From Candidatus Electronema aureum (lineage in GTDB: Bacteria > Desulfobacterota > Desulfobulbia > Desulfobulbales > Desulfobulbaceae), in NCBI GenBank assembly GCA_004284765.1, contig NQJD01000002.1, positions 180,001-212,000 of the forward strand: 32,000 nucleotides of DNA, read 5' to 3'. Below, piece by piece: positions 2 through 29,994 of this stretch (positions are counted from its first letter, which is position 1; each line of letters starts with the position of its first letter). Both the position numbers and the translations under genes were made by a program. A model generated the notes under the pieces. It worked only from the letters and a program-made list of their open reading frames with translations, did no database searches and had not been told where the DNA came from.

Positions 2-736
2 CCTTCGCGTCGCCCGACTGACGGACGCTACGGGGAGAACCCTAACCGCCTCCAGCACTATTATCAATATCAGGTAGTGATCAAGCCCTCGCTGCGCAAC
101 ATTCAGGAGCTGTATCTCGGCAGCCTGCGGGAATTCGGCCTCAACCTGCTGGAGCATGACATCCGCTTTGTCGAGGACGACTGGGAATCGCCCACGTTGG
201 GCGCGTCTGGCCTCGGCTGGGAAGTCTGGTTAGACGGCATGGAAGTGACGCAATTTACCTATTTCCAGCAGGCTGGCTCGCTGGAGTTGTATCCGGTGAC
301 GGTGGAAATCACCTATGGTTTAGAGCGACTGGCGATGTATCTTCAGAAAAAGGAATCAGTTTACGACATCCAATGGAATCGCGATGTGACGTATGGCCAG
401 ATATTCCTTCAGGCGGAGCGTGAATTTTCGGCTTTCAACTTTGAAGAGGCGAATGTTGCTGATCTGATCGCCAACTTCAACAACTACGAGCGCGATGCCC
501 TCAAGCTGGTGGAAAAAAATCTGATTCTTCCTGCTTACGATTATTGCCTCAAATGCTCGCACAGCTTTAACCTGCTCGATGCCCGCAAGGCAATCAGCGT
601 GGCCGAGCGGACGCGCTACATCGGGCGGATTCGCAACATTGCCCGCCAAGTGGCCCAACATTATGTAGCCCAGCGCGAGGCAATGGGGTATCCGCTACTG
701 GCCGAGCGGCAGGCAGTGATGGCGGAAGCTGCGTAA
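2..736 (+). CDS. glyQ: glycine--tRNA ligase alpha subunit, 5'-truncated by the window edge
   Basis: The frame is open from nt 2 and reads [30 protein letters not shown]..., the conserved GlyQ core. Track ORF 77..736 is only the part downstream of an internal GTG. TAA at 734-736. Confidence 0.95.
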
Positions 737-746
737 TCCCGGCGCA

Positions 747-795
747 CAGAACAGATGCCGTAGGCGACGCGGCATTTGTTCTGATTCTTGTTTTG
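747..795 (+). terminator. rho-independent terminator after glyQ
   Basis: A 14-bp stem (cagaacagatgccg / cggcatttgttctg, one G-U) with a 9-nt loop is followed by the T-rich attcttgttttg. Confidence 0.7.
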
Positions 796-815: not shown

Positions 816-2921
816 ATGGAGTGGTGCAAACAGCTTCTTGACGGATTGAGGTCTCTGTTGACTCGTCCAGATGTGGTTTGGAGCGGCATTGGAACCAGTT
901 TCCTTGTTGCTGCACTTACCTGGTTTTTCACTCGTCTCCGCAAACCAAACACCGCTTCCATCCAGCACGATGCCAGCGACTGGCTGGTCAAGAACCGGCG
1001 CAAATTCCTTGGTCGCTTTCAAAGAGAGCTGAAAGACCGTCGCCAGTCTTTCCTGCTTGGGCATACCGCGCTGGAGTTAGACAAAAACTTGGCTCCGAAC
1101 CAAGTGAGCCGACCTTATTCTTTTCAGGACAGGACAGATTGCATCTGGGAGCGGGACGGCGTGACCATCGCGACCACAGATCAGCCCATTGTCGATCTCT
1201 TTTGCCGTCCCGATGTGGGCGGGCAGTTAGTCATTTTGGGCAAGCCGGGCAGCGGCAAGACCGTCTGCCTGCTCACGCTGCTTGAGCATCTGCTGCAAAC
1301 AGCGCAGGACAATGACGCGGCCCCGCTGCCTGTGGTCTTTGAATGCTCGGAATGGGACGGGCGCGAGCTTTCCCTGTGGATGGCTGCGCAGCTGCATCGC
1401 AAATACCATTTCCCAGAGGACATGGCCCGCCATCTGGTGCAGGCGCATGACATCCTGCCCCTGCTCGACGGCTTGGATGAGCTGGCAACGGAAAAGCAGG
1501 GAAGTTTTGTCAGCCAGTTCAATCTCTTCGCCGACAACCGCCCCTTGGTGCTCTGCTGTCGGCTTGAAGAATACCGCCAACTTCGGGAAAGCGCAGGGCA
1601 GAAGCTGGCCCTCAGGAATGCAGCGATCCTTCAGGATATTACTCCGCAGCGGCTCAAGGGGCATCTGCTGCGGACAGGGCTGGAGGATATCTGGACCGTG
1701 CTTGAGCAGTCCCGGATTGAGGCCGGGCAGCAGCAGAGCCTGCTGGAATTGGCTCAAAGGCCCCTGTTTCTGGGCGTGATGATCGAGGTGGCCCAAGATT
1801 TGCGCCAAGGTTCAGGGCGGCAGCCGGGTGAGACTTGGGAGGACTTCCTTTGGCGGAACTATCTCGACAAGCGGCTGAATGTGTCCCCGCCCGCGCACGG
1901 CAAGAAATACAGCCAGCAGCAGTCCCTGCACTGGCTGCGCTGCTTGGCAAAGTGGATGCAGGCGGAGCAGAAAGTGGAATTGTGGATAGATGAACTTCAG
2001 CCGAGTATGCTGAAGGGCTATTGGCGGTTTGGGCTGCTTTATGGGCTGTTTGTCGGCTTGACTGTGGGGCTGATGGGGTGGCTGTTCGCAACGCCGGTGC
2101 TCGCAGCGTCGGTCGGGCTGGCTGGGTGGCTGCTCATCGGCCTGCCCGGTGTCCTGCCGTGGCAATGGGCAGTCAAAATTATCGCAGGTCTGGCTTGGGG
2201 AGTATTCGGCTGGCTGGCAAAGGGGCCGGTGGTCGGCCTGTTTTGCGGGCTGCTCGTCATGGTGGTAGCAGATAACGACCGCATCAGGATTGAAGCACTC
2301 CGCCCGCTCCGGCTTCCAGCTTCATGGCGAGATGGGAAGATATTCAGCGCAATGCTGGCGCTCTGGCTGTTTTTCAGTCTGGCTTTCGGCCTACTTGTTG
2401 GGCTGGTGCTTGAATTCGTTCAAGCGGGAAAAATCACGCCTAGGGCATCGATGGCTCACTGTTTGGTTGTCGGGCTGTTTGCAGGCTTGCTGGTAGGGCT
2501 TGCTGACGGCTTAAAGGCAGTTGCCGGGCCGCTCAACGAAACAGCTCATCCCCAGCAGCGGCTGAAGGATGCCCTGCGCAGCAGTCTGCTGCTTTTCCCG
2601 CTCTTTGTTCTTGCGGCTTTGCTGCTCTTTGTCCAAGTCCTGTTCTCATCGGAACAGCTGGGAATTGCTTTCAGGCCTTTGTTCAAGATGCAGAATTTTT
2701 ATTTGTTCTTGTTTGCAGCAGCAATCGGCAGCTTTATTGTCCTCGGCACCAATCAGGTGCTTCAGCATTACCTGCTACGCCTCTGTCTGCGCTGGGAAGG
2801 GCAGCTGCCCCTGCGCTTTGTGTCTTGGCTGGAGGCCATGCAGCAGCGCAAAGTCTTACAGCAGGTGGGCGGCAGCTACCATTTCCTGCACAAGCAGCTT
2901 CAGGAATATCTGGCAAGATAG
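816..2921 (+). CDS. NACHT-like STAND P-loop NTPase with an N-terminal TM helix and a block of about 8 TM helices
   Basis: GGAGG lies 6-10 nt upstream of the ATG. Walker A is GKPGSGKT (nt 1239-1262) and Walker B is LLDGLDE (nt 1461-1481). A NACHT-type terminal motif, YHFLHKQLQEYLA, sits at the C-terminus. Hydrophobic Gly/Leu/Trp-rich helices span aa ~403-655 (nt ~2020-2780). Confidence 0.8.
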   Translation: MEWCKQLLDGLRSLLTRPDVVWSGIGTSFLVAALTWFFTRLRKPNTASIQHDASDWLVKNRRKFLGRFQRELKDRRQSFLLGHTALELDKNLAPNQVSRPYSFQDRTDCIWERDGVTIATTDQPIVDLFCRPDVGGQLVILGKPGSGKTVCLLTLLEHLLQTAQDNDAAPLPVVFECSEWDGRELSLWMAAQLHRKYHFPEDMARHLVQAHDILPLLDGLDELATEKQGSFVSQFNLFADNRPLVLCCRLEEYRQLRESAGQKLALRNAAILQDITPQRLKGHLLRTGLEDIWTVLEQSRIEAGQQQSLLELAQRPLFLGVMIEVAQDLRQGSGRQPGETWEDFLWRNYLDKRLNVSPPAHGKKYSQQQSLHWLRCLAKWMQAEQKVELWIDELQPSMLKGYWRFGLLYGLFVGLTVGLMGWLFATPVLAASVGLAGWLLIGLPGVLPWQWAVKIIAGLAWGVFGWLAKGPVVGLFCGLLVMVVADNDRIRIEALRPLRLPASWRDGKIFSAMLALWLFFSLAFGLLVGLVLEFVQAGKITPRASMAHCLVVGLFAGLLVGLADGLKAVAGPLNETAHPQQRLKDALRSSLLLFPLFVLAALLLFVQVLFSSEQLGIAFRPLFKMQNFYLFLFAAAIGSFIVLGTNQVLQHYLLRLCLRWEGQLPLRFVSWLEAMQQRKVLQQVGGSYHFLHKQLQEYLAR

Positions 2922-2958: not shown

Positions 2959-3033
2959 ATGTAGCCCAGCGCGAGGCGATGTGGCCGCTGCTGGCCGAGC
3001 GGCAGATGAGATGATGGCAGAGGCGGCTTTTAA
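2959..3033 (+). pseudogene. degenerate duplicate of the glyQ 3' end (relic)
   Basis: It aligns to 663-736. The first 19 nt (atgtagcccagcgcgaggc) and a 15-nt block (ctggccgagcggcag) are identical. It encodes VAQREAMWPLLAERQMR* versus genuine Gly[24 protein letters not shown], with indels and a premature stop. Confidence 0.85.
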
Positions 3034-6875: not shown

Positions 6876-9800
6876 ATGACAGACTTCAGCATCGGTTCCA
6901 TTCATCATGGCTTCATCCTTAAACGCAAAGAACAGGTTGCTGAGATCAGCTCTGAAGTCTTTCTGTTCGAGCACCAGGTGCTTGGCACACCTGCCTTGGC
7001 GATAAAAAACAGCGATCCCAATAAGACCTTCTGCTTTGCCTTCCAGACTGTGCCGAACGATAACACCGGCGTGGCGCATATCTTGGAGCATTCCGTGCTG
7101 GTGGGATCGAAGAAATACCCTGTGCAGGACATCTTTGGCGAAATACATAAGGGCGGTCTGATGACCTTCCTCAACGCCATGACCGGTGCTGACACCACTT
7201 GGTATCCGTTCGCCACCCGCAATCTGAGCGAGTATTTCAGCATCATGGATGTGTATTGTGATGTGGTGCTCAATCCAATCTTGGCCCGCAGCACTTTCGA
7301 GCAAGAGGGCTGGCATTATCACAAGGAAAGTCAGGGTGCGCCCTTAGAGTTCCAAGGGGTGGTCTTAAATGAAATGAAAGGGGCATTTGGTGATCCTACC
7401 CGGGCACTCTTTCAGAACACCTTTGCCGGTCTGATGCCTGAATCAACCTATGCCCAAGAGTCGGGCGGCGACCCAGCCTGCATTCCTGCTCTGAGCTACG
7501 AGCAGTTTATCGAGTTTCATCGCAAGCATTATCATCCCTCCAACGGAATGCTGTTCTTCTACGGTGATGCTGATCTTGAGCAGGAGTTGGCAGCCGTGCA
7601 GGACAAGTTCCTCTGCACCTATACGAGCGCGGGCGAAAAGGCCAAGATTGTGCCGGGCCGCACGATTGCCAAGCCGGTGTTCATTGATGATACCTATGCA
7701 GTGCAGCCGGGCAGTAACCTCAAGGGCAAGACCTATTTGGCAGTAGGCACTGCAATTGGTACTCTGCTGGACCGAGAGCTTACCACCGCCTTTCAGATCA
7801 TTGCTAACATCCTCTACAATTCAGATGCGTCGCCGCTGAAGAAAGCCATTGTCGAGGCTGGCTTGGGCAAGGATTTCGGCGGGATGTTTATTACTGATCA
7901 TTGCTTTCAGACAGTGATGCTGACCTATCTGGTTGGCTCTGATGCGGACAAGCGCGACCGCTTCTTGGAGCTGCACCGGCAGGCCTTAACCCAGATTGCT
8001 GAACAAGGACTTGAGCATGATCTGGTGCTGTCTGAGCTGAACCATTACGAGTTCTCTGTCCGGGAAGAGCTGACTCATGCCCAGCGCGGCCTTGATCTGA
8101 TTGGCAAGGCACTGACTGCGCTCCAGCATGGTGCAGACCCATTTGCCGCTCTGGAGATTGACCAGCTCTTTGCCGCTGTCCGCCGCAAAGCGTTAGAGGA
8201 ACAGTACTTTGAGCAGCTGATCCAGAGCACCTTGCTGGATAGCCCGACCTTTGCTGCGGTCACACTGCGGCCTGATCCAGATAAGGCCACCCGCACTCAG
8301 CAGGAAGAGCAGCGCAGGCTGGCAGCGTATGAACAGACCCTTGACCCAGCCCAGGTACAGTCACTGATCGCCACTACTCAAGAACTGATGCGCTTGCAGC
8401 AGACCCCGAACACGGAAGAGCAGCTGGCCTTGGTGCCTCGGCTTGCCCGCAAGGATTTGGAATGCAGGCCACCGATGCACAGTGCCAGCACCGAAGTCTG
8501 CGGCTCGGTGGAGTGTATCAGCAGTGAATTAGATACCAACGGTATCACCTACGTCCAGTTTGGCTTGGACTGTGCAGCCATCGGTCCAGACCTGCTGCCA
8601 TACCTTGATCTCTTTGCCACCATTGCTACTGAGATTGGTACCAGCAAGCGTGATTACGTCCGTTTTGCTAAAGACATCAACATCTGCACCGGCGGCTTCA
8701 GCCATTCGTTCTCCACGTATCATCATCTTGAGAGCAAAGCACAGCTGCTGCCTTTGCTCTGGTTCCAGATCAAGGCCCTGTCCGGCTATTTACCCCAGGC
8801 TTTAGATTTAGTGCGCGAGGTCTTTGCTGATGTCAATCTCAGCAACCGGCAGCGGATTAAAGAAATAGTTTTGCGGGAATTCACTTGGGCCGAGCATTCA
8901 GTGCAAAGTGAGGGGTATCAGCTGGCAGCAAGCCGGGTCTTTGCCCATCTCAGTCGGGCCGGGATGATTAATGAACACGTCAACGGTGCGACTGCATATC
9001 TTACCCTGAAAGAGTTAGCAGCCAACTACGATAAGCAGGAAGAACAATTCCTTGCCAAAATAGAACGTCTGCGTCAGCTCGTCTTGCAGCCTGCGGATAT
9101 GAAAATTGCTGTCACTGGCTCTGCGGCAGATATTGGCACGATCAAGGCGCAGATCAACGAAATCAAGCAGAGCCTGCTTGGCAGCACCCCACAGCCTGCT
9201 GAGATGCTCTTCCCGCAGTTTGCCGAGCAGCAGGCGTTCACTACTTCAGCGGATGTGGTCTATAATGTTCAAGGCTGCAACCTGTTTACCAATCCTAAGC
9301 AATATGACGGCACCTTCGAGGTGCTGAAAACATGGTTGTCACGGGATTACCTGTGGAACACCGTGCGCCAGTTGGGCGGTGCTTACGGCTGTTTTGTTCA
9401 ATTTCATCCGGTGTCTGGCAATTTCGCCCTGATCAGCTTCCGTGACCCTCAAGTGAGCAAGACCTATGCGGCCTATGAGGCGATTGCCGCAGCAGTCAAG
9501 GAGCTTGATTTGAGCCATGCTAAGTTGGATCAGCTGATTATCGGTGCGTATGGTAGCCTGAATCCGTTGCGCTCCCCGGCGGCTGAAGGTGTGAAGGCCC
9601 GTGATGCGTACCTTTGTGGTATTACGCCAGAACACCGGCAGCAGATACTGGAGCAGCTGATCGACACAGAGGCAGCAGCACTACGTGGCTTTGCGCCGCT
9701 ATTTGCCCAGCTCACAACCAATAGCTTTAAGGCAACTATCGGCAGCAGCGAGAAGATTAGAGCCAATGCTGAATTGTTTAATGCGGTGGTGGAGTTGTAA
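6876..9800 (+). CDS. M16C family (PreP/insulinase-like) zinc metallopeptidase
   Basis: 974 aa. HILEHSVLVGSKKYPVQDIF is the inverted HxxEH zinc motif in M16C context. The size is typical of presequence-protease-like enzymes. Confidence 0.88.
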   Translation: MTDFSIGSIHHGFILKRKEQVAEISSEVFLFEHQVLGTPALAIKNSDPNKTFCFAFQTVPNDNTGVAHILEHSVLVGSKKYPVQDIFGEIHKGGLMTFLNAMTGADTTWYPFATRNLSEYFSIMDVYCDVVLNPILARSTFEQEGWHYHKESQGAPLEFQGVVLNEMKGAFGDPTRALFQNTFAGLMPESTYAQESGGDPACIPALSYEQFIEFHRKHYHPSNGMLFFYGDADLEQELAAVQDKFLCTYTSAGEKAKIVPGRTIAKPVFIDDTYAVQPGSNLKGKTYLAVGTAIGTLLDRELTTAFQIIANILYNSDASPLKKAIVEAGLGKDFGGMFITDHCFQTVMLTYLVGSDADKRDRFLELHRQALTQIAEQGLEHDLVLSELNHYEFSVREELTHAQRGLDLIGKALTALQHGADPFAALEIDQLFAAVRRKALEEQYFEQLIQSTLLDSPTFAAVTLRPDPDKATRTQQEEQRRLAAYEQTLDPAQVQSLIATTQELMRLQQTPNTEEQLALVPRLARKDLECRPPMHSASTEVCGSVECISSELDTNGITYVQFGLDCAAIGPDLLPYLDLFATIATEIGTSKRDYVRFAKDINICTGGFSHSFSTYHHLESKAQLLPLLWFQIKALSGYLPQALDLVREVFADVNLSNRQRIKEIVLREFTWAEHSVQSEGYQLAASRVFAHLSRAGMINEHVNGATAYLTLKELAANYDKQEEQFLAKIERLRQLVLQPADMKIAVTGSAADIGTIKAQINEIKQSLLGSTPQPAEMLFPQFAEQQAFTTSADVVYNVQGCNLFTNPKQYDGTFEVLKTWLSRDYLWNTVRQLGGAYGCFVQFHPVSGNFALISFRDPQVSKTYAAYEAIAAAVKELDLSHAKLDQLIIGAYGSLNPLRSPAAEGVKARDAYLCGITPEHRQQILEQLIDTEAAALRGFAPLFAQLTTNSFKATIGSSEKIRANAELFNAVVEL

Positions 9801-15229: not shown

Positions 15230-16135
15230 ATGGGATGGACGATGAGAAGATTTTTTTCTGCTGTTTTTGCGCTGGCCTTTGTCGTCAGCTGTTTATCTTT
15301 AGCATGGGCAGGCGAAAAGGAGGATGAGCTGCTCAAGGCGATGGAGGCAATTGTGCAGCAGTATAAGGCAGGCGAGGGCAATCAGCAGCAATCAAAGGAC
15401 GATACGCCTCCCGCCGTTGAGCAGCAGAAGAGCCAAGCATTGCAACAAACACCTGTTGAGGCGGCTTCTTCTTGGTTACAACCTCCAGCTGCCACTACGC
15501 CTCCAGTTCCAACAGAGCAGTTACAGAGTGTTGAGGAAGAAGCAGCGATTCCAGCAGAAATCGCCGATATCTTCCAACTGTCGCCATCTCCTGCGCAGGT
15601 GGCTAATAATGATGACATTATCACCACCATTGAAGAAGCGGTGCGCCAGTATCGGGCTAACGATTTTGCCGGAGCGATTTCCAATCTCGACTATGCCACT
15701 CAGCTGATCCGCCAGAAAAAAAGCGAACGAATGAAGGCTCTGCTGCCTGAACCTTTGCTCGGCTGGCTGGCCAAGCCCGCTTTGGCAAAATCTTTAGGTA
15801 CAGCGGTCTTTGGCGGTGGATCGACAGTCAGTCGCGATTACTTTATCGGTGGTGGTGCCGTCGTTTCTGTCGAAATCATCTCCGATTCCCCGGTACTCCA
15901 ATCGATCATCATGATGCTCAATAATCCGCTTTTTGCTGGAGCTTCGGGCGGGAACATTCAAACCATCAAACAACAGCGGGCCATGCTCAAATACAATGAG
16001 CAAGATCACAGCGGCGAAATTAATATTGTGGTTGCTGGGCGTTTCATTGTCACCGTTAAAGGCCGAGCTGTAGATCAAATTGTGCTGTTCCGCTATGCTG
16101 AAGCCGTTGATTTTGAAGCATTGGCGAAAAATTAG
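15230..16135 (+). CDS. hypothetical secreted protein or lipoprotein
   Basis: Signal peptide RRFFSAVFALAFVVSCLSLAWA, then a Gln/Pro-rich linker. The start could instead be the ATG at 15242. A strong terminator follows. Confidence 0.65.
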   Translation: MGWTMRRFFSAVFALAFVVSCLSLAWAGEKEDELLKAMEAIVQQYKAGEGNQQQSKDDTPPAVEQQKSQALQQTPVEAASSWLQPPAATTPPVPTEQLQSVEEEAAIPAEIADIFQLSPSPAQVANNDDIITTIEEAVRQYRANDFAGAISNLDYATQLIRQKKSERMKALLPEPLLGWLAKPALAKSLGTAVFGGGSTVSRDYFIGGGAVVSVEIISDSPVLQSIIMMLNNPLFAGASGGNIQTIKQQRAMLKYNEQDHSGEINIVVAGRFIVTVKGRAVDQIVLFRYAEAVDFEALAKN

Positions 16136-18439: not shown

Positions 18440-18563
18440 CTGGCACCGCTGCCATTTTTGCTTTTCTGCTGGCGCAGGCGAAATCATCGCCATTTTTTCA
18501 AACGGCGATTTTGACAACATTCATGCAAGGTTACTGGATAAAATAACCATTCAAGAAAGATGA
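18440..18563 (+). pseudogene. frameshifted relic of a second mpl 3' end
   Basis: It encodes TAAIFAFLLAQ, then after a 10-nt deletion (frameshift) AGEIIAIFSNGDFDNIHARLLDKITIQER*. Genuine Mpl reads TDAILAFLLKQARPGDVIAILSNGGFDNIHARLLEGL. Its TGA overlaps the ATG of the next ORF. Confidence 0.8.
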
Positions 18564-20299
18564 ATATTTTTATATTTTCAATTTTTGTTTCTCTCGTTCT
18601 CTATTTAACACTTACGATCTCTTTTGCTGGGTACGGAAAAGCTATATATCTGATAATTAACGACAGATATAAAAAAGAAGTGAATCACCAAATATCCTTC
18701 TTGGTATGGACTGGATTTTGCTGTTTTATTTTCATTATGAGCATTATTCATCTATTCTTTTCTCTTGATTTATATGTAGTTGTCCCGACTCTTACTTTTG
18801 GAATCATCCTTTCAATAATATTTTTTATCAAAAACTTTAATTATTATTTACAAATTGTCTTGTCAGTACCAACTTGGTTGTTGGTTGTGATGTTTTTCGC
18901 ACTCTCCTTGGTCTCCACGTGGCTTGCATTACGCGCCATGTTACCTCCAACAAATTACGATTCTGGACTTTATCATTTCAACTCAATAAAATGGTTAAAT
19001 TCTTTCCCAATAACATATGGGATTGGAAATTTACATGGAAGATTATCGTTTAATCAATCTTTTTTTGCATACGCAGCATCTCTTAATTTTTATCCATTAT
19101 TTAATCACGGACGTTCTATAGCAAACAGCTTTCTTATTTTGCTATCTTTTGCAACCTTAGTTGAATTTAGTTTTCGATTAAGAAGTAAAGATAAATTTAA
19201 AAATTTAAATTTTGTTTTATCTATTTTTACAATCCCAGTACTTGCATACTGGTCACTCACATCAGACGGAATGCAGTCTCCTTCTCCTGATCTAACATCT
19301 AATCTTATTCAAATAATAATTTTTTTCTATTTTGTAGAGTTTCTAAATACAGAAAAAAATTCAACAAAATCAATATACTTATTGTCTCTTCTGACTGCAA
19401 CAGCAATAACGATAAAATTAAGCAATTTATTATTTTGCATGTCAATTATTTTTTTATTATTTTTTATATCTTCTTTGCGTAAAAACTTTTCTGTTAAAGG
19501 GTATTTACTATCTACATTTATTATATTTGCAATATTGGCAGTCTGGTGTATTCGCGGATTTATTATGTCAGGAGCGCCTCTTTATCCTTCAACGATTGGC
19601 TATATCAACGCAGAATGGTCTGTCCCTGTGGACGAAATAAATGAAATGGAAAAATGGGTTTACAGCTGGGCGCGACAGCCAAAAATGCACTGGAGTGTTG
19701 TGCTGGGAAACTGGAACTGGTTTACACCTTGGATTAATGTAATAACAACAAAAAGAAATATAGAAGTAGTTTTTCCATCTTTTGTTTTTTTATCGTTAAC
19801 TATAATTAATATAGTATTATATTTCAGATCGAAAAATATCTTTAGACTATATTTTCTATCTAAATTAACAATAATTATACCTCCAGCTATTGGGTTGTTG
19901 TTTTGGTTTTTTACTGCCCCTGATCCAAGATTTGCGCAGGGACTTTTTTTCTTACTGCCAATTTCTTCAGCTCTTTTTATGCTTTACTTGACAAGAGAAC
20001 TGCTAAAACGTACCACTTATATAATAACTATATGCATTCTTTTTTTATTTTGTAGCTTTAACTTAATAAGGTTTATGGTAAACAACATGTCGACATTTAG
20101 ACAAATTTCAATGATTGGCTGGCAAAATATCAAAAATGTTGAGATAGAAAGAAAAATTACAAAACATGGTGTTGTTATATTTAAGCCCTTACACGGAGAT
20201 CAGTGCTGGGACTCTCCTATTCCTTGTACTCCATACTTTAACGAAGAACTACGCATGAGAAACCACAAGGTAGTGTCATCAGGGTTTTCAATAAAATAA
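18560..20299 (+). CDS. AT-rich polytopic membrane protein with at least 12 TM helices (GT-C glycosyltransferase- or O-antigen-polymerase-like, uncharacterised)
   Basis: A 579-aa uninterrupted ORF in DNA that is roughly 30% G+C by eye, with Ile/Phe/Leu/Asn/Lys-rich usage. The loop motif PPTNYDSGLYHFNSIKW after the early TM helices resembles the first-loop acidic motif of GT-C enzymes. Confidence 0.8.
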   Translation: MNIFIFSIFVSLVLYLTLTISFAGYGKAIYLIINDRYKKEVNHQISFLVWTGFCCFIFIMSIIHLFFSLDLYVVVPTLTFGIILSIIFFIKNFNYYLQIVLSVPTWLLVVMFFALSLVSTWLALRAMLPPTNYDSGLYHFNSIKWLNSFPITYGIGNLHGRLSFNQSFFAYAASLNFYPLFNHGRSIANSFLILLSFATLVEFSFRLRSKDKFKNLNFVLSIFTIPVLAYWSLTSDGMQSPSPDLTSNLIQIIIFFYFVEFLNTEKNSTKSIYLLSLLTATAITIKLSNLLFCMSIIFLLFFISSLRKNFSVKGYLLSTFIIFAILAVWCIRGFIMSGAPLYPSTIGYINAEWSVPVDEINEMEKWVYSWARQPKMHWSVVLGNWNWFTPWINVITTKRNIEVVFPSFVFLSLTIINIVLYFRSKNIFRLYFLSKLTIIIPPAIGLLFWFFTAPDPRFAQGLFFLLPISSALFMLYLTRELLKRTTYIITICILFLFCSFNLIRFMVNNMSTFRQISMIGWQNIKNVEIERKITKHGVVIFKPLHGDQCWDSPIPCTPYFNEELRMRNHKVVSSGFSIK

Positions 20300-20804: not shown

Positions 20805-21413
20805 ATGTCTGACTATCAACCGAAAATCTTGGGGTTTCTCTGCAACTGGTGCTGCTACACCGCCGCTGACTCCGCTGGCGTGGGCCGCTATCAGTATCCG
20901 CCCAACCTGCGGGTAATCCGCATGATGTGCACTGGCAGGCTCGATCCGTCGTTCCCGCTGGAAGGGCTGGCGAATGGGGCTGACGCAGTCTTTGTCGGCG
21001 GCTGTCATCCGGGCGAGTGCCACTATATCGACGGCAACTACCACGCTTTGGTCTCAGCCGCTTTGGTGCATGAGACCTTGGCGCGTCTGGGCATCAGCAA
21101 AGACCGCTTCCTGATTGATTGGGCCTCTGCTGCCGAAGGGCCGAATTTTGTCAAGATCATCACCAAGTTTACCCAACGGGCCGCCGAGCTGGGACCGCTG
21201 GGCAAGGCTGAAGGGTTGAACGAAGCCGAGCTGCGCAAGAAGCTGGTCGAGGCGGCAGAGGTCTCCCGCAATGCCAAGGTACGCACCGGCTTGATCAGTG
21301 CGAGCAAAGAGATGATGAAGAGCGGCGACTATTCCCGGCCCGCCATCGCTGCCTTGGTGGCGGCCAAGTGCGACAAAAACCTGACTGAACTCCTTGGAGG
21401 ACGACCTGTATGA
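20805..21413 (+). CDS. MvhD/FlpD-like hydrogenase iron-sulfur subunit with a ~60-aa C-terminal extension
   Basis: KILGFLCNWCCYTAADSAGVGRYQYPPNLRVIRMMCTGR...VFVGGCHPGECHYIDGN is the MvhD signature. Its stop overlaps the next ATG (ATGA). Confidence 0.85.
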   Translation: MSDYQPKILGFLCNWCCYTAADSAGVGRYQYPPNLRVIRMMCTGRLDPSFPLEGLANGADAVFVGGCHPGECHYIDGNYHALVSAALVHETLARLGISKDRFLIDWASAAEGPNFVKIITKFTQRAAELGPLGKAEGLNEAELRKKLVEAAEVSRNAKVRTGLISASKEMMKSGDYSRPAIAALVAAKCDKNLTELLGGRPV

Positions 21414-24400
21414 GCAAGACCGCAACCCTGACCATCAACGGCCAGCAGTTCAGCCTTGCCCCTGACCAGACCATTCTGGCAGCGGCAGATCAGGCGGGCA
21501 TCCGCATTCCTCGCCTCTGTCATCTGCCGGGCCACCGCGATGCCGACCAGCCCTGTCTGCTCTGCCTCGTCGAGGTGAACGGCAAGAGGGCGCGGGCCTG
21601 TCAGACCAAGATCGCTGACGGCATGGTGATCGAGACGGAGACCGCCGAGCTGATCGCCCACCGCAAGGAACGGCTGACTCAGCTCGCCGCTGTTCATTAC
21701 GGCGACTGCAAGGCCCCCTGCAACCTGACTTGTCCCGGTTCGATCAACGTGCAGGGCTACATCGGCCTGATCGCCCAAGGCCAGCACAGCGCGGCCCTTC
21801 GCCTGATCAAGGAAGTGAACCCGCTGCCAGGCATCGTCTGCCGCGTTTGCCCGGCTTTCTGCGAGAGCCGCTGCCGTCGTTCGCTCTTGGATGACGCGAT
21901 TGCCATCAACAATCTGAAGCGTTTCGCCTCAGACTACGCGGTGCAGCATCCGCTGCCGCAAGAGCCAGTTGCCCCAGCTACAGGCCGCAAGGCTGCTGTT
22001 ATCGGTGGCGGCCCAGCAGGTTTGAGCGCAGCGTGGTTCCTGCGCAAGCAGGGCCACAGTGTCACCATCTTTGAAGCAGCTGCGCAGCTCGGCGGCCTGC
22101 CGCGCACGGCCATGCCCGCCTACAAGATGCCCAAAGATGCGCTGGACCGGGAGATTGCCACTGTCCTCGCTTTAGGCGTGGAAGCGAAGACCGGCACAGC
22201 TTGGGGCAAGGATTTCTCGCTCGCTGATCTTCAGCAGCAGGGCTACGAGGCTATTTTCATCGCCGCTGGTTTGTCTGGCCGGAAGAAGCTGACTGTGCCC
22301 GGCTCTGAGCTGGCGCAGGATGGCATGGACTTCCTTGCTCAGGTCAATGCAGGAGCAGCGAAGCAGCTTTCCGGCAAGATACTGATCATCGGCGGCAGCA
22401 AGGCAGCAATTGAGTCGGCCCGCTGCGCTGTTCGCATGGGCGCAAGCGAAGTGACGGTAGTCTTTGACCGCCCGACTGAGGAAATGAGTGCCTACGAGAA
22501 GGACGTGTCCATGGCCATGCGGGAGAAAGTGCGCTTCCTGCCCATGACCGCGCCGCTCTCCATCCGGCAGGAGCAAGACGGTTTCGTGGTTGAGCTGACC
22601 AAAATGGTCTTCTTGGAAGCAGATCAGCGCGGCCAGCGGCAGACTGTGCCTGCGGACGGCTCGCTCCTGCGCTGGGAAGGCGCGGCAGTGTTGAGCTGCT
22701 TGGGCCAAGAAGGCGACGATGCCTTCCGCAGCTTCGGCGAGCTGGAAGGCAAGCTGGCGGTCAATCCCAACAAGACGATCAAAGTCAGCCCCTCCACCTT
22801 GCATACCAATCTGCCTGGCATCTACGCGGGCGGTGAGATTGCCAGCGGTGCCAAGGCGGTGATTCAGGCGGTGAACGCGGGCCGCAAGGCTGCTGAAGCT
22901 ATACACCGGCAGTTCGGCGGGACAGAGACCGAGCTGGCTGACGGCACCTTCAACTTCAGCAAGGGTAAGAAGTTTGATGACGTTGACCTGCGCAACTACA
23001 GCGGCATGACTGTCCAGCCGCGTCTGCGCCTGCCCGTGCGTCCGGTCGCTGACCGCAGCCGCGACTTCCGCGAGAGCGAGCTGGGCTACACCGAGGAAAC
23101 AGCTGTGCGCGAGGCGCAACGCTGCCTGTCCTGCGGCTGCACCGGCCTGAGCAAGTGTGAGCTGCGCCCGCTCTGCCAGGAGCACAAAGTGCCGCTCTCT
23201 GCTGCCCCCAACAAGCAGCAGGCCGCGCCGGACAGCTCGCATCTCTTCATCACTGTTGATGTGAACCGCTGCACCGCCTGCCAACGCTGCGAGCGGGTCT
23301 GCGAGTTCGATGCCTTCGCGTTTTCCTGCGAGCGCGGCAAGGACGGCGGCATTGCCAGTATCAGCCTGAAGATCAAGGAAAACTGCGTCTCCTGCGGGGC
23401 CTGCGTGGATGCCTGCCCGACCGGCGCACTGACCAAGAAAGAGCTGGCTGTGCCGCTCCTGCCCGGCGAGGCGGAAAGCACCCGCAGCGTCTGCACCTAC
23501 TGCGGCACCGGATGCAGCATTGACATTCAGGCCAAGCACGGTGCTATTCTGGAGGTCAAATCCTTTGCCGACGCGCCGCCTAATCAAGGTGACCTCTGCG
23601 TCAAAGGCCGCTTTGGCTGGGACTTCTACCGGCACAAAGAACGTCTGACCGTGCCGCTGATCCGCGAGAGCCTTGATCAACCTTTCCGCAAAGCCACATG
23701 GCCGGAGGCTCTGGCCTTTGCCGCTGCGGGCTTCAAGCGTATTCAAGAACAGCAAGGCCCGGCAGCGCTGGGCGTGCTCTCCTCCTCGCGCTGCGAGAAC
23801 GAGGTGAACTACCTCGCTCAGAAGTTCTGCCGCACCGTCTTCCACAGCAACTCGGTGGACAACTGCGCCCGCGTCTGCCATGCGCCGTCAGTGAGCGGCC
23901 TGCGCATTGCTCTTGGCAGCGGCGCGGCGACCAACTCGCTCGCCGACATCGAAGGCGCGGAGGTGCTGCTGATCAGCGGATCCAACACCACTGAGGCGCA
24001 TCCGGTGGCGGGCATGAAGGTCAAACGCGCTCTTGGCAAGAAGGGAGCCAAGCTGATCGTCATTGATCCGCGCAAGACCGAGCTGGCAGCGCGGGCGGAC
24101 ATCCATCTCCAGCTCATTCCCGGCACCAACGTTCTTCTGCTCAACTCCCTGCTCAGCGCCATCTTCGACGAAGGCTTGGAGGACAAGGACTTCATCGCCA
24201 ATCGGACGGAGAACAGCGAGGCAGTGCGCCAGCATCTCGCCGCGTATTCGCCTGAAGTGATGGAAGCGCAGAGCGGGGTTCCCGCCGCGCTGGTGCGGCA
24301 GGCGGCCCGGCTCTATTGCAGCACCAAAAAGGGCATGATCCTCTACGGTCTCGGCATGACCGAGCACCGCAACGGCACTCAAGGCGTAATGGGGCTGGCG

Positions 24401-25510
24401 AACATCGCACTGGCTTCAGGCAATGTGGGCAGGCCGAGCGCGGGCATCTGTCCGTTGCGTGGCCAGAACAACGTCCAAGGCTCTTGCGACATGGGCGCGC
24501 TGCCCTATGTCTATTCCGGCTATCAGGACGTGGCGGATGATGCCGCCCGCAGCCGGATGGAGCAGCTCTGGCAGTGCGGCCTGTCCGACGTGCCTGGCAT
24601 GACTGAGCCGGAGATGTACGAGGCGGCCCGCGCCGGTCAGTTCAAGGGCCTGTACTGCATCGGTTATGACCCGGTGCACACACAGGGCGATGTCAACAAC
24701 GTGCAGGCCGCCTTCCGGCAAATGGACATGGTGGTGGTGCAGGACATCTTCCTGACCAAGACAGCGCAGATGGCGCACGTGGTGCTGCCCGCCTCCTGCT
24801 TCTACGAGAAGGATGGCACCTTCACCAACGCCGAGCGGCGCATCCGGCGCATCCGCAAGGCCGTGGAGCCGCTGAGTGAGTCGCGGCCTGACTGGAAGAT
24901 CGTCTGCGATTTGGCGCAGGCGATGGGGCACAGCATGGATTATGCGGATGCCGCAGCGGTGATGGACGAGATTGCCGCCTGCTCGCCAATGCTCGGCGGG
25001 GTGAAGTACGACCGCCTCGAAGGCGACGGCCTGATCTGGCCCTGCCCGACCGCTGATCATCCCGGCACGCCCATCCTGCACAAGGAGAGCTTCACACGGG
25101 GCAAGGGCTACTTCTCCGTGCTTAAGAACGTGGAGACGCTGGAGAAGCCGGATGCTGAATACCCGCTCATCCTCGTCACCGGCAGGCGGCGTGAGCACTA
25201 CAACAACGGCTCCATGACCCGCCGCTGCTCCGGCCTGCTGGCCCTTGTGCCGGAAGAGCTGGTGGAAATCCACCCGGATGACGCGGCCTGGCTCGGCATC
25301 GTGGATGGCCAGCGGGTGTCAGTCAGTTCGCGGCGCGGCGCAATTGAGCTGACCGCTTGGGTGACTGAGCGCAGCCGTCCCGGCGCGATCTTCATGGCCT
25401 TCCACCACGAAGAGCCATTGACCAACACCCTCACCAGTCCGGGCGTGGATGAGATCGCTCTTACGCCTGAGTACAAAGCCTGCGCGGTGCGGGTGGCTCC
25501 GGCGGCATAA
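21410..25510 (+). CDS. multidomain formate dehydrogenase alpha-like fusion: 2Fe-2S, GltD-like NAD(P)H/FAD module, 2x[4Fe-4S], and a Mo/W-bisPGD catalytic domain
   Basis: aa 1-80 hold a NuoG-type 2Fe-2S Cys pattern. aa ~95-520 are GltD-like (CPGSINVQGYI, VCPAFCESRC, AAVIGGGPAGLSAA). CTACQRCERVC and CVSCGACVDACP start at nt 23261. CTYCGTGCS, CVKGRFG and the active site NCARVCHAPS follow from nt ~23490. Confidence 0.88.
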   Translation: MSKTATLTINGQQFSLAPDQTILAAADQAGIRIPRLCHLPGHRDADQPCLLCLVEVNGKRARACQTKIADGMVIETETAELIAHRKERLTQLAAVHYGDCKAPCNLTCPGSINVQGYIGLIAQGQHSAALRLIKEVNPLPGIVCRVCPAFCESRCRRSLLDDAIAINNLKRFASDYAVQHPLPQEPVAPATGRKAAVIGGGPAGLSAAWFLRKQGHSVTIFEAAAQLGGLPRTAMPAYKMPKDALDREIATVLALGVEAKTGTAWGKDFSLADLQQQGYEAIFIAAGLSGRKKLTVPGSELAQDGMDFLAQVNAGAAKQLSGKILIIGGSKAAIESARCAVRMGASEVTVVFDRPTEEMSAYEKDVSMAMREKVRFLPMTAPLSIRQEQDGFVVELTKMVFLEADQRGQRQTVPADGSLLRWEGAAVLSCLGQEGDDAFRSFGELEGKLAVNPNKTIKVSPSTLHTNLPGIYAGGEIASGAKAVIQAVNAGRKAAEAIHRQFGGTETELADGTFNFSKGKKFDDVDLRNYSGMTVQPRLRLPVRPVADRSRDFRESELGYTEETAVREAQRCLSCGCTGLSKCELRPLCQEHKVPLSAAPNKQQAAPDSSHLFITVDVNRCTACQRCERVCEFDAFAFSCERGKDGGIASISLKIKENCVSCGACVDACPTGALTKKELAVPLLPGEAESTRSVCTYCGTGCSIDIQAKHGAILEVKSFADAPPNQGDLCVKGRFGWDFYRHKERLTVPLIRESLDQPFRKATWPEALAFAAAGFKRIQEQQGPAALGVLSSSRCENEVNYLAQKFCRTVFHSNSVDNCARVCHAPSVSGLRIALGSGAATNSLADIEGAEVLLISGSNTTEAHPVAGMKVKRALGKKGAKLIVIDPRKTELAARADIHLQLIPGTNVLLLNSLLSAIFDEGLEDKDFIANRTENSEAVRQHLAAYSPEVMEAQSGVPAALVRQAARLYCSTKKGMILYGLGMTEHRNGTQGVMGLANIALASGNVGRPSAGICPLRGQNNVQGSCDMGALPYVYSGYQDVADDAARSRMEQLWQCGLSDVPGMTEPEMYEAARAGQFKGLYCIGYDPVHTQGDVNNVQAAFRQMDMVVVQDIFLTKTAQMAHVVLPASCFYEKDGTFTNAERRIRRIRKAVEPLSESRPDWKIVCDLAQAMGHSMDYADAAAVMDEIAACSPMLGGVKYDRLEGDGLIWPCPTADHPGTPILHKESFTRGKGYFSVLKNVETLEKPDAEYPLILVTGRRREHYNNGSMTRRCSGLLALVPEELVEIHPDDAAWLGIVDGQRVSVSSRRGAIELTAWVTERSRPGAIFMAFHHEEPLTNTLTSPGVDEIALTPEYKACAVRVAPAA

Positions 25511-25722: not shown

Positions 25723-26747
25723 CTACTTCTTGAGAAACTCTTGTTTCCTCTCTTCGACGACTGCGCAGAAATCAGAGTTGTTTACATTGAAGAAGTCCTG
25801 AATCTCTTGCGAAAAACCGAAAACAGCCCATGGCGCAGACTCTGCGGCCAAGGACAGGCTACGGTCAGTCGCAATCTCACTGCCCTGAATTTCAGCTATT
25901 CCGCCCCGGCAGATCAAGCGTACACTATAGGTCTTGCCGGTTGGGATGTGAAATTGGTACTGTGCTTGGTGACTGTCTTATATGCCCAGAGCAAGTCACT
26001 GAACTGCAAGATATCAAACGTGAACCATGTTGACTTGATCAAAAAGTCTTTTGTAAGAGTCCAGCTGCTACCTGTGAAGCGAGGCGAAGAAGACTGCCTT
26101 TCTGCCGCTGAGGCGATAAGGATTGGATTGCCCCAGCGACTGATCCTTTTCATCAGCGGGTGCAGAGCTGGGTTCCGCCAATACCTCCACGCTGGAATGC
26201 CAATGTAGGCTAAGAAACCGCCTAAGCACACCAGCACGACTATTGCGAAGTATCCAATGGAACGGAAGGGCTGCGTTTCGAGATAAAAGGGATAGAACTG
26301 GCTGCGAATCTCCAGCATTTCCCTGCTGGAAAAAAGATGATTGCTCACCTCAGCAGGCATCTCCGCTAATGCGCCCTCAACAGTTGTCAGCGGGGTATAA
26401 TCGCCCTCATAGATGAGGAACTTTTCTCCTATAACCAGTCCATAGTACTTTGCTGACACCGACCGATCTGTTTCAACACCGTTCCGCGTGTGGACAGCAA
26501 ATTTTTGGATTCCTGTATCTATCGCTTTAGAGCCGGATATTCTGGCAAAGTACCGTGGTGTTTGCGACACATCACGAATAAGGTCGAGGTCAGCGGCACT
26601 AAGATCATAAGGCCCGTTGATAAAATTCTGAATGTAACGCTTCTGCACGAAGAGAAGCAGCGCAATACAGACGGCTATGACCGCACAGACTGTGATTCGA
26701 CGGATGCTTTTCTCTTTGATCATCCTGTAAATCCATGTATCCATCAC
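25723..26747 (-). pseudogene. two-TM membrane protein gene interrupted by a 1-nt frameshift
   Basis: Track ORF 25914..26747 ends ...WAYKTVTKHSTNFTSQPARPIVYA*. The adjacent frame continues FHIPTGKTYSVRLICRGGIAEIQG...EERKQEFLKK* down to 25723. The switch maps to the AAA run at 25951-25953. Confidence 0.6.
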
Positions 26748-26938: not shown

Positions 26939-27097
26939 TTGACAAAGTCCTACCGCAGCTCTACGCTGGCGAGCGCATAGCATAACCTGGGCAGACAAAG
27001 AGAGCTGCCCCTATCGGCAGGGCGAACCAAGGTGTCCGCCCTGATCTCTTCCGTTTGGCCTTTTGTTTATTTGTTCCTTTCCCATCCGCACTATTTT

Positions 27098-27114
27098 GGG
27101 TAAACTGACTGCAA
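27098..27114 (+). promoter_or_regulatory. candidate sigma-54 (-24/-12) promoter
   Basis: gGGtaaactgacTGCAa: GG at 27099-27100 and GC at 27111-27112 at the canonical spacing, with TGCA at -12. Other consensus positions match poorly. It is about 54 nt upstream of the ATG at 27166. Confidence 0.3.
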
Positions 27115-27165
27115 ACCCTCTTTGTGCCGTGTCCTTGCGGCCTGCAATCCAAACAGGAGAACACT

Positions 27166-27519
27166 ATGCTTGAAGTAACTGATTCAGCAGTTAAAAACGT
27201 TAAAGAGTATCTGAGCCAGCACAGCATCGAGTCTGCTGTCCGGGTCAGCATGATTTCTGGCGGCTGCTCTGGCCCCAGCCTGAGCTTGTCCATCGACGAA
27301 GCAAAAGACAGCGACCTGACCGTAGAGAAAGACGGGGTTAGCTTTGTTATGGACAAGGGCCTGTCAGCTACCTGCGGCGCAGTGAAGGTTGATTTCATTG
27401 AATCATCCGGTGGCTGTGGCTGCTCCGGTGGTGGTTTCACTATCACCTGCGAGAACCCCTTGCCCGGCGCACGGAGCGGCGGCTGTGGCGGTTCTTGCTC
27501 CTCTGGTTCCTGCTGTTAA
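27166..27519 (+). CDS. HesB/IscA-like Fe-S cluster insertion protein with a Cys/Gly/Ser-rich C-terminal tail
   Basis: The start was moved to the ATG at 27166, behind AGGAG. ISGGCSGPSLSLSID and GGCGCSGGGF supply the three canonical IscA cysteines. The extra tail is TCENPLPGARSGGCGGSCSSGSCC. Confidence 0.75.
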   Translation: MLEVTDSAVKNVKEYLSQHSIESAVRVSMISGGCSGPSLSLSIDEAKDSDLTVEKDGVSFVMDKGLSATCGAVKVDFIESSGGCGCSGGGFTITCENPLPGARSGGCGGSCSSGSCC

Positions 27520-29276: not shown

Positions 29277-29362
29277 GGAGGAATGGCCGAGCGGTTGAAG
29301 GCGGCGGTCTTGAAAACCGTTGTGCGAAAGCACCGTGGGTTCGAATCCTACTTCCTCCGCCA
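29277..29362 (+). tRNA. tRNA-Ser (anticodon UGA)
   Basis: Manual cloverleaf: acceptor GGAGGAA/TTCCTCC, anticodon loop CTTGAAA, long variable arm GTGC-GAAA-GCAC, T-loop GGTTCGAATCC, encoded CCA. Confidence 0.92.
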
Positions 29363-29377
29363 AAATCGACGTATCCC

Positions 29378-29469
29378 GGAGAGATGACCGAGTGGCCGAT
29401 GGTGCTCGCCTGCTAAGCGAGTGTAGGGGTAAAACCCTACCGAGGGTTCAAATCCCTCTCTCTCCGCCA
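29378..29469 (+). tRNA. tRNA-Ser (anticodon GCU)
   Basis: Acceptor GGAGAGA/TCTCTCC, anticodon stem CTCGC/GCGAG with loop CTGCTAA, long variable arm TAGGG-GTAAAA-CCCTA, T-loop GGTTCAAATCC, encoded CCA. Confidence 0.92.
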
Positions 29470-29484
29470 TCATCAAGTGCAAAA

Positions 29485-29517
29485 AACCCGTTCCTGCATA
29501 AGGAACGGGTTTTTTTA
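29485..29517. terminator. bidirectional rho-independent terminator
   Basis: aacccgttcc-tgcataa-ggaacgggtt is flanked by an A-run and a T-run. It lies between the tRNA operon (+) and the SH3 gene (-). Confidence 0.8.
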
Positions 29518-29547
29518 TCTGCTGCTTTGTGCTGGCAGTCTGCCGCA

Positions 29548-29994
29548 TCAAAATCCCCAGAGCAAGTCATCGTTCACCCAGCCGGTCACGCTGCCTTGCC
29601 TGACCTTAACCCAGCCTTTTTTCTTTTCCAGCGTTTTAAACACCACGCCATAACTGGCTTTGGCCACGATGTTACTGCGGGTATGGGGACGGCTACGGAG
29701 ATTGATTGTTTTCTTTTTAACAATCATGTGGCCCTGTTTACCCGCTACAGATGTGTGAACCCAACCAGAAGCACCCTCGAAATCCCGCACGTTGAGCCAT
29801 TTACCAGAACGCTTCTGCACCTTCAAGGGAAAACCTTGATCAAGTCGCCACAGCACTTTTCCTTTCTTGTCTGGCTTAGACAACATACTCACGTTATTAC
29901 GGTTAACGGCCACCATTTCGGCACGTGCTGCTGCTGTATTCAGGAACAGCAGAGATAATGCAAGCAGCAGAATGAAACAAGATGATTTCTTCAT
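29548..29994 (-). CDS. secreted protein with tandem bacterial SH3-like domains
   Basis: The start was moved to MKKSSCFILLLALSLLFLNTAAARA (a signal peptide). Two repeats follow the V..L..R..P....V...L..G.....K..G.W..V pattern and end with GWV. Confidence 0.7.
   Translation of the reverse strand: MKKSSCFILLLALSLLFLNTAAARAEMVAVNRNNVSMLSKPDKKGKVLWRLDQGFPLKVQKRSGKWLNVRDFEGASGWVHTSVAGKQGHMIVKKKTINLRSRPHTRSNIVAKASYGVVFKTLEKKKGWVKVRQGSVTGWVNDDLLWGF

Follow-up and report, generated by a model that had tools for sequence, protein, structure and literature searches.

A predicted membrane-embedded NACHT protein of Candidatus Electronema aureum with a split winged helix and exchangeable membrane cassettes

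Bacterial NACHT proteins with transmembrane (TM) insertions have already been catalogued by Kibby et al., as category 4, and the layout as such is not new. According to that survey, the Walker B signature D[GAS]hDE separates NACHT from other STAND clades, the TM-inserted members are enriched in cyanobacteria and multicellular bacteria, and intramembrane sensing is the role predicted for them. The paper gives this class one sentence, in which the position of the insert is not analysed and no cassette polymorphism is described, and its supplementary tables hold no matching architecture strings and no entries from cable bacteria. Here, we describe a gene of this class located at positions 816–2921 of a 32,000-nucleotide stretch of Candidatus Electronema aureum DNA (contig NQJD01000002.1, positions 180,001 to 212,000 of the forward strand; hereafter the window). 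The encoded protein resembles the catalogued class in its D[GAS]hDE-type Walker B motif and in a module with multiple TM segments, but it lacks the enzymatic or adaptor N-terminal domain, in place of which there is a single hydrophobic helix. No tested bNACHT assignable to its family was found. What is new here is that the N-terminal helix and the membrane block are, judging from comparisons among orthologues, swappable cassettes of separate and much older ancestry than the core of the protein to which they are joined.

The gene is a complete open reading frame (ORF) of 701 codons on the forward strand with an ATG start (816–2921), and a Shine–Dalgarno-like GAGGGAGG, read directly from the sequence, lies 5 nucleotides 5′ of the ATG (803–810, same strand). 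The product, a predicted membrane-embedded NACHT-clade STAND NTPase, is 100% identical to the NCBI entry ‘NACHT domain-containing protein’ of Candidatus Electronema aureum, a freshwater cable bacterium. The Pfam NACHT model PF05729 matches residues 138–229 with 42.6 bits against a gathering score of 26.7 (E 7.5e-11). The Walker A motif GKPGSGKT (residues 142–149, positions 1239–1262) fits GxxxxGK[ST], and the Walker B motif LLDGLDE (residues 215–222, positions 1458–1481) contains DGLDE (218–222), a form of the NACHT signature. In an alignment of 67 relatives, G142, G145, G147 and K148 of Walker A and D218 and G219 of Walker B are invariant, as are P316, P665, F690 and H692; the last two belong to YHFLHKQLQEYLAR (residues 688–701), with which the protein ends. 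By its sequence the 701-residue protein is thus a NACHT-clade STAND NTPase with intact catalytic motifs. Searches with Pfam, NCBIfam and PADLOC revealed no effector or repeat domain; the NCBIfam search returned noise only, Pfam found no TPR-like repeats and PADLOC no match to the Avs models. The first-pass annotation of this DNA, prepared from the letters alone, had described the two Walker motifs, the C-terminal position of the last motif and the absence of effector domains and sensor repeats, and all these descriptions stand.

The whole protein was modelled with AlphaFold2 on the 67-sequence alignment (mean predicted local distance difference test score, pLDDT, 83.7; predicted template modelling score, pTM, 0.76), and the same helices were obtained when the membrane block was modelled alone (pLDDT 86.6, pTM 0.76). 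Residues 1–45 (positions 816–950; this and the following segments are on the forward strand) comprise an amphipathic helix and one hydrophobic helix (residues ~20–41) followed by RLRK, and form the first variable module, a cassette. Residues 46–400 (951–2015) make up the conserved, predicted cytoplasmic core, which is under purifying selection and comprises a pre-NACHT helical region, the nucleotide-binding domain, helical domain 1 and the first winged-helix helix, with a conserved ELQP motif at its end. The second variable module, residues 401–645 (2016–2750), is a predicted intramembrane block of eight helices, here referred to as cassette type A, and residues 646–701 (2751–2918), the most conserved part of the protein, comprise a connecting helix and the second half of the winged helix. 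By the Kyte–Doolittle scale, a hydrophobic segment at residues 20–38 is followed by a continuous hydrophobic region at 405–649, and the modelled hydrophobic helices lie at 24–41, 402–424, 427–445, 450–469, 471–484, 504–535, 542–569, 579–614 and 625–642, which agrees with the N-terminal TM helix and the approximately eight later ones proposed at first sight. Where the model departs from that proposal is in the placement of the block, which had been put ahead of the winged-helix domain. A helix at 367–383 precedes the block, and the connecting helix (645–660), a helix at 668–677, a hairpin at 681–690 and a helix at 693–700 follow it; since the helix 367–383 and the elements at 668–700 form one winged helix in the model, the block is predicted to be an insertion inside the winged-helix domain.

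Foldseek searches of the PDB with the whole model gave NOD2 (5irm, E 6.6e-7), NLRP7, NLRP14 and NLRC4 (4kxf) as the top matches, in line with the NACHT assignment. With the 67-sequence profile, the family motif Y.F.H aligned with Y439–H443 of NLRC4, collinearly with the rest of the match, so that the invariant H692 (codon at 2889–2891, forward strand) falls opposite H443. The histidine H443 is in contact with ADP and keeps NLRC4 switched off; when it is mutated, NLRC4 becomes hyperactive, as do bNACHT25 and bNACHT16 on mutation of the corresponding residue (Kibby et al.). As the block lies between the first helix and the rest of the winged helix, the bundle would be mechanically in series with H692. 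The number of helices in the block is even, eight in cassette type A and, by inspection, six in type B. If both ends of the eight-helix block are cytoplasmic, the model leaves outward loops of only 1–12 residues and places the Arg-rich loops 485–503 and 570–587 on the predicted inner side; the membrane block is thus, as modelled, almost purely intramembrane.

The modules of the protein have had different histories. Module conservation was computed as mean pairwise identity among 16 cable-bacteria orthologues, and amounted to 77% for the second half of the winged helix and 68% for the NTPase, but 38% for both the block and the first 45 residues; the length of the block varies from 189 to 294 residues. 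Six Electronema-type proteins have cores 89–93% identical and blocks only 20–76% identical, while the reverse is found for P0007 compared with P0015 and P0016 (blocks 88–92%, cores 64–67%) and for P0009 compared with P0023 (block 70%, core 49%). Sliding windows placed the breakpoints at residues ~400 and ~645, exactly at the borders of the insert. The N-terminal helix is 96% identical between P0003 and P0015, whose cores share 63% identity, and likewise 96% identical between P0004 and P0009, whose blocks share 28%; three modules reassort, and the N-terminal helix does so independently of the block. The synonymous divergence (dS) tells the same story. Between the window and the Candidatus Electronema sp. 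JC locus (L004), dS is 0.16–0.26 in the core, 1.15 in the block and 1.83 in the N-terminal helix, whereas the locus L005, which has the same block type as the window, gives 0.09–0.18, 0.155 and 1.36, respectively; in comparisons with differing block ancestry, block dS is 1.15–1.19. Such differences in dS between the modules indicate that they are of different ancestry. Within the one cassette lineage shared with L005, the ratio of nonsynonymous to synonymous divergence (dN/dS) is 0.87 in the block and 0.33–0.43 in the core, and the core dN/dS of 0.2–0.4 in every allele pair argues for a functional gene. Assembly chimeras were considered as the source of the mosaics and rejected, as the same core and block combinations occur as distinct alleles in NCBI, UniRef, Logan, ENA and JGI data, with one combination present in four independent assemblies. 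No silent donor block cassettes were found within 6–8 kb of eight copies of the gene.

Hyperdivergent alleles are also observed at one and the same place. The window gene lies between glyQ and nadA, and the JGI metagenome contig L087 carries hemH, the CSD gene, nadA, a NACHT gene and glyQ in this order, which the independent Logan contig L088 confirms. At the DNA level the window and L087 are 93% identical in glyQ, 98% in the spacer between the NACHT gene and nadA, including the insertion scar described below, 94% in nadA, 98% in the CSD gene and 91% in hemH. The identity falls to 74% over NACHT codons 46–400, is lost in the membrane block, which is not alignable at the DNA level, and returns to 87% over the last 74 codons. 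Correspondingly, dS is 0.07–0.35 in the flanks, 0.78–1.18 in the core, 1.33 in the block and 0.33 in the last 74 codons, with a core dN/dS of 0.21–0.28. The relation to Candidatus Electronema sp. JC is the opposite one: nadA is 81% and the NACHT core 92% identical, as against 96% and 66% in the comparison with L087. By these comparisons the NACHT gene tree contradicts genome relatedness, and the glyQ–nadA gene matches the pattern of polymorphic recognition loci, i.e., divergent syntenic alleles and modular exchange, a likeness of functional class and not of homology. A survey of this locus had been suggested with the first-pass annotation; besides the divergent allele of L087, it yielded Candidatus Electronema sp. 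PJ, in which neither glyQ nor a NACHT gene adjoins nadA.

These signatures also raise the question of whether the gene might be a self/non-self determinant of the filament, i.e., a kin or allorecognition gene like the fungal HET NLR loci, in which incompatible cassettes of neighbouring or fusing cells would trigger the switch. Deeply diverged alleles that persist at the syntenic locus of sister genomes, alleles shared across species, cassettes that reassort while both alleles remain under purifying selection, and the concentration of the family in filamentous bacteria would all be expected of such a determinant. However, host–parasite arms races give the same signatures, no paired partner gene is present, and with outward loops of this length nothing extends past the inner membrane to touch another cell, which makes allorecognition a distant prospect in our view.

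Among cable bacteria the gene is widespread. Orthologues with 41–81% identity are present in many Electronema and Electrothrix assemblies, and the next relatives, at ~30%, are cyanobacterial. In three Electrothrix species the surroundings are syntenic, with a 2-hydroxyacid dehydrogenase gene upstream and an ion-channel gene and aconitase downstream, while in Electronema-like genomes the gene occupies at least three sites: after the prepilin peptidase gene, near mod and nadC (Candidatus Electronema sp. JC) and between glyQ and nadA (the window). The NACHT gene is hence found across the lineage, yet it is mobile and highly polymorphic. Regulators are known among the STAND proteins too, and the gene could encode a lineage-specific, membrane-associated signalling ATPase of cable bacteria with no part in conflict, whose variable helices are weakly constrained. 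The occurrence of orthologues across both genera, the gene order kept in three Electrothrix species beside housekeeping genes and an ion-channel gene, the native composition and a window free of mobile-element genes fit such a role. Nevertheless, weak constraint can neither lift dS 5–10 fold in two modules of one gene nor yield 90%-identical blocks joined to 66%-identical cores; moreover, the gene has moved between loci, and its relatives include proteins with death-type effectors (TIR, CHAT) as well as plasmid-borne members. We therefore regard a signalling role outside conflict as improbable.

Beyond the cable bacteria the family is large. The full layout, that is, Walker A and B, several hydrophobic segments and then Y.F.H..L.EYFA, is present in at least 86 of the 120 best homologues, with the last motif 13–66 residues from the C-terminus. 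With residues 365–701 as the query, 1,574 representative clusters (50% identity) were found at E <= 1e-3, 91 of them at E <= 1e-10, and nearly all matches listed run to the C-terminus of the protein. The architecture had initially been taken as unusual, a claim weakened by the size of the class and its earlier cataloguing. The region preceding Walker A is 87–576 residues long among the homologues and in many of them contains TIR, CHAT, trypsin, protein kinase, SARP or XRE domains. When 203 full-architecture proteins were compared, 158 had a short N-terminus and 45 a long one, of the sort in which TIR, CHAT, protease, kinase or HTH modules are found; since one or two N-terminal hydrophobic helices resembling those of the query occur in 54 of the 158, the layout of the E. 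aureum protein appears to be a regular subtype. Among the matches listed for species-representative genomes, the relatives are overwhelmingly from filamentous cyanobacteria; Chloroflexota account for some, Chlorobiaceae for two and a Thiotrichales genome for one, and a genome often has several paralogues. The family is over-represented in filamentous, multicellular bacteria, and its members are found on 69 plasmids.

The distribution of N-terminal effectors bears on what the membrane block does. It is conceivable that the block itself is the effector, the NTP switch being triggered elsewhere (e.g., in the cytoplasmic core) and the oligomerised bundles forming a pore. This would suit a subtype devoid of an enzymatic effector, a block rich in Gly-x-x-x-Gly-type helix-packing motifs and outward loops too short for periplasmic ligands, as well as the sharp variation of the block, a behaviour that Kibby et al. 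ascribe to effector modules. On the other hand, the block stays in place where a relative already possesses a TIR, CHAT, protease or kinase effector at its N-terminus, and it is wired into the winged helix by the nucleotide-sensing histidine, a place for regulation and not for output. Its modelled fold resembles neither solved structures (best E 0.23), channels and pores included, nor predicted viral structures. A pore-forming block is accordingly judged doubtful, though it deserves more weight than either allorecognition or a signalling ATPase.

We favour, tentatively and with somewhat less than even confidence, a reading in which the intramembrane bundle is a sensor that gates an NLR-like switch, the output is membrane damage through clustering, and the cassettes are specificity modules. 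The sensor reading is favoured because the block holds its position in relatives already equipped with N-terminal death-type effectors, because it is wired beside the nucleotide-sensing histidine, and because it evolves like a recognition module; intramembrane sensing is also the prediction of Kibby et al. for the TM-inserted NACHTs. The protein would then be an inner-membrane-embedded bacterial relative of NLR immune receptors, triggered by a change within the membrane, e.g., when a membrane protein of a phage or mobile element docks on the bundle, or when the bilayer is perturbed. Such a change would move the C-terminal half of the winged helix, with H692, off the nucleotide, and the exchange of ADP for ATP and oligomerisation in the plane of the membrane could, speculatively, follow. 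Relatives would act through the TIR, CHAT, protease, kinase or HTH module at their N-terminus. In the effector-less subtype the N-terminal helices and bundles would, most likely but again speculatively, cluster and damage the membrane of the affected cell, resulting in an abortive-infection-type response that stays within a single cell of the filament. The parts embedded in the membrane would act as specificity cassettes, exchanged between lineages and kept diverse. As for the membrane disruption or membrane-level sensing suggested at the outset, sensing is now preferred, and disruption driven by the block is less likely, as the block coexists with a long N-terminal region in 45 of the 203 proteins.

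Several observations weigh against the sensor reading and should be set beside it. The stretch that aligns H692 with H443 is weak when taken alone (1.9 bits), and the topology rests on the Kyte–Doolittle scale and AlphaFold2, not on a dedicated predictor. The short outward loops of the model leave no periplasmic surface for ligand binding. Kibby et al. found that effectors, and not sensors, vary between close relatives, so the cassette swaps fit an effector equally well. There is no defence island in the window, the sole PADLOC match is a weak one to the candidate PDC-S60 (E 1.1e-5) over the NTPase, no phage record contains a relative, and neither experimental work nor a reported phenotype was found in the literature for any member of the family. 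Regarding the broader idea of a conflict or defence gene, cassette exchange, hyperdivergent syntenic alleles and plasmid-borne members speak for it, whereas the missing defence island and the PADLOC result do not; taken together, a conflict or recognition role has indirect but strong evolutionary support in these sequence comparisons. A bolder version would hold that the split winged helix represents a distinct mode of NLR activation in which the bundle gates the release of the histidine, that the ancient cassettes are maintained by balancing selection, and that the gene is the counterpart of polymorphic NLR loci, reading membrane events (infection or non-self) in the filament. We consider this full version unlikely.

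The gene reached its present position by insertion. The gene glyQ (77–736, forward strand) ends at position 736, and its 3′ end, the last ~24 codons with the stop codon (663–736, forward strand), constitutes the left copy of a direct repeat of ~72 nucleotides. The right copy, a decayed duplicate of the glyQ 3′ end (2959–3030, forward strand), abuts the stop codon of nadA (3044) and carries a 3-nucleotide deletion and a frameshifting 2-nucleotide insertion; the window contains exactly two copies of a 17-mer from the repeat, where 0 would be expected by chance. The recurrence of the glyQ 3′ end before the nadA stop means that the space between glyQ and nadA received an insertion of ~2.3 kb, made up of a glyQ 3′ end together with a terminator and the NACHT gene, and the gene stands alone within this scar, as had been noticed at first reading. 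The terminator, an intrinsic-terminator-like hairpin with a 15-bp stem followed by a T-run (747–783, forward strand), lies after glyQ within the inserted segment and separates the solitary NACHT gene from glyQ; on the other side the gene is convergent with nadA. A sigma-70-like promoter was not found between glyQ and the NACHT gene. The scar is common to the window and the sister genome L087, and the insertion therefore predates their split; as the scar is shared and the alleles it encloses are deeply diverged, the alleles must be older than the genomes that carry them. No flanking duplications were found at seven other cable-bacteria loci, which makes the scar specific to the E. aureum/L087 lineage.

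The possibility that the gene is compositionally foreign was rejected, as its GC content at third codon positions (GC3) is 0.68, within the range of its neighbours (0.55–0.79); with a native GC3, either the gene came from a related genome or its arrival lies far back in time. The window contains no mobile-element genes, and housekeeping or metabolic neighbours are found throughout it (glyQ, nadA, hemH, serS, tatC, a Mur ligase gene and similar). The accessory status proposed for the gene is therefore upheld only in part: the scar shows that it moved into the locus, but orthologues across both cable-bacteria genera, synteny in three Electrothrix species, native GC3 and the housekeeping surroundings speak against it. 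In both the window and L087, glyQ is followed by the terminator and the NACHT gene and not by glyS, and no member of the glycyl-tRNA synthetase beta-subunit family was found among the window ORFs of at least 150 residues scanned with Pfam. In L087, a fragment of an IS1-family DDE transposase (7276–7740, 154 residues) lies ~1 kb beyond glyQ; the counterpart of this stretch falls upstream of window position 1.

No conserved partner gene was found across the cable-bacteria loci, although various small genes accompany individual orthologues. A gene for a 202-residue fn3-domain protein lies on the opposite strand beside the NACHT orthologue at L004 (6937–7545), L005 (10150–10758) and L006 (6555–7163); it was rejected as a partner, as the window holds no homologue and the 202-residue ORF of the window encodes a FlpD protein. 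Toxin–antitoxin-like pairs lie directly downstream of the orthologues in Electrothrix GW3-4 (L001, 10268–10926; ORFs of 160 and 59 residues) and in the Electronema-like metagenome-assembled genome L006 (5811–6485; a DUF4160 protein and a 131-residue ORF), in the latter with a phage-type integrase gene ~6 kb away. Downstream of the Electrothrix sp. Rat3 orthologue (L003, 10105–10476) there is a 123-residue ORF with degenerate short repeats of the GNPPVT/DDPLVT type, unlike the Electrothrix GW3-4 ORFs at the same position. At approximately 20 cyanobacterial loci, a pentapeptide-repeat gene directly precedes the NACHT gene on the same strand, and the RefSeq annotation of two plasmids of Nostoc PCC 7120 confirms this upstream gene. 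One or two such genes are seen in Nostoc PCC 7120 (L090, 1652–3691; L091, 919–3826) and at L012, L015, L017, L019, L026 and L044, and some of the cyanobacterial pentapeptide-repeat proteins have C-terminal hydrophobic helices. The pentapeptide-repeat and NACHT genes look like a two-gene unit, which is missing at all cable-bacteria loci.

Elsewhere in the window, at 20805–25510, the stop codon of a FlpD-like gene (202 residues) overlaps the start codon of the gene that follows, which encodes a fusion protein of 1,366 residues with 2Fe-2S and 4Fe-4S clusters joined to a pyridine-nucleotide-disulphide oxidoreductase and a formate-dehydrogenase-like molybdopterin oxidoreductase. The ORFs at 15230–16135, 18560–20299, 25741–26208, 26961–27446 and 29320–29958 (301, 579, 155, 161 and 212 residues) have no Pfam match at E <= 1e-4, and the last of them is probably not a gene, because it overlaps two tRNA-Ser genes (29277–29362 and 29378–29469).

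To our knowledge, the characterised bacterial and eukaryotic NLR-type switches all sense by soluble domains. If the bundle gates the switch, this family would provide an example of an NLR that reads an event within the lipid bilayer, and the insert beside the ADP-contacting histidine offers a concrete hypothesis that can be approached by mutation (H692, K148, cassette swaps). Two ancient alleles at one locus and three reassorting modules are natural variants for studies of specificity, and old membrane parts exchanged as cassettes are a typical feature of recognition genes engaged in an arms race. In the long multicellular filaments of cable bacteria, a single infected cell puts the entire filament at risk, so that a switch for cell-autonomous suicide or containment would be relevant to how these organisms survive phage attack. 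The family comprises more than 1,500 representative clusters, and copies are carried on plasmids of the model strain Nostoc PCC 7120.

The place of the E. aureum protein among the known systems may be summarised as follows. The cyanobacterial two-gene units, such as WP_010994161.1/WP_010994162.1 on pCC7120epsilon of Nostoc PCC 7120, combine a pentapeptide-repeat protein with a TM-inserted NACHT protein. The latter belongs to the same family and has the same architecture, with ~28–31% identity over residues 59–701, but the pentapeptide-repeat gene directly upstream on the same strand is a partner that the cable-bacteria genes lack. With the animal NLRs (NLRC4 4kxf, NOD2 5irm, NLRP3) the protein shares the nucleotide-binding, helical and winged-helix fold and the F-x-H motif aligned with H443 of NLRC4; in contrast to them, its winged helix is split by a membrane-helix insert of ~260 residues, it has no leucine-rich repeats, CARD or PYD, and the sequence identity is 10–20%. 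The Avs/AVAST proteins likewise use a STAND switch as a single-gene defence sensor; however, they bind phage proteins with soluble TPR-like sensors, and the E. aureum protein matches no Avs model. In ZAR1-type resistosomes of plant CC-NLRs, soluble before activation, an N-terminal helix enters the membrane after oligomerisation, but these proteins belong to another STAND clade (NB-ARC) and the likeness is one of analogy only. The fungal NLR loci HET-E and HET-D also join a NACHT switch to a hypervariable recognition module with divergent alleles maintained, yet their variable module consists of soluble WD40 repeats, their output is a HET or other death domain, and the homology is limited to the NACHT module.

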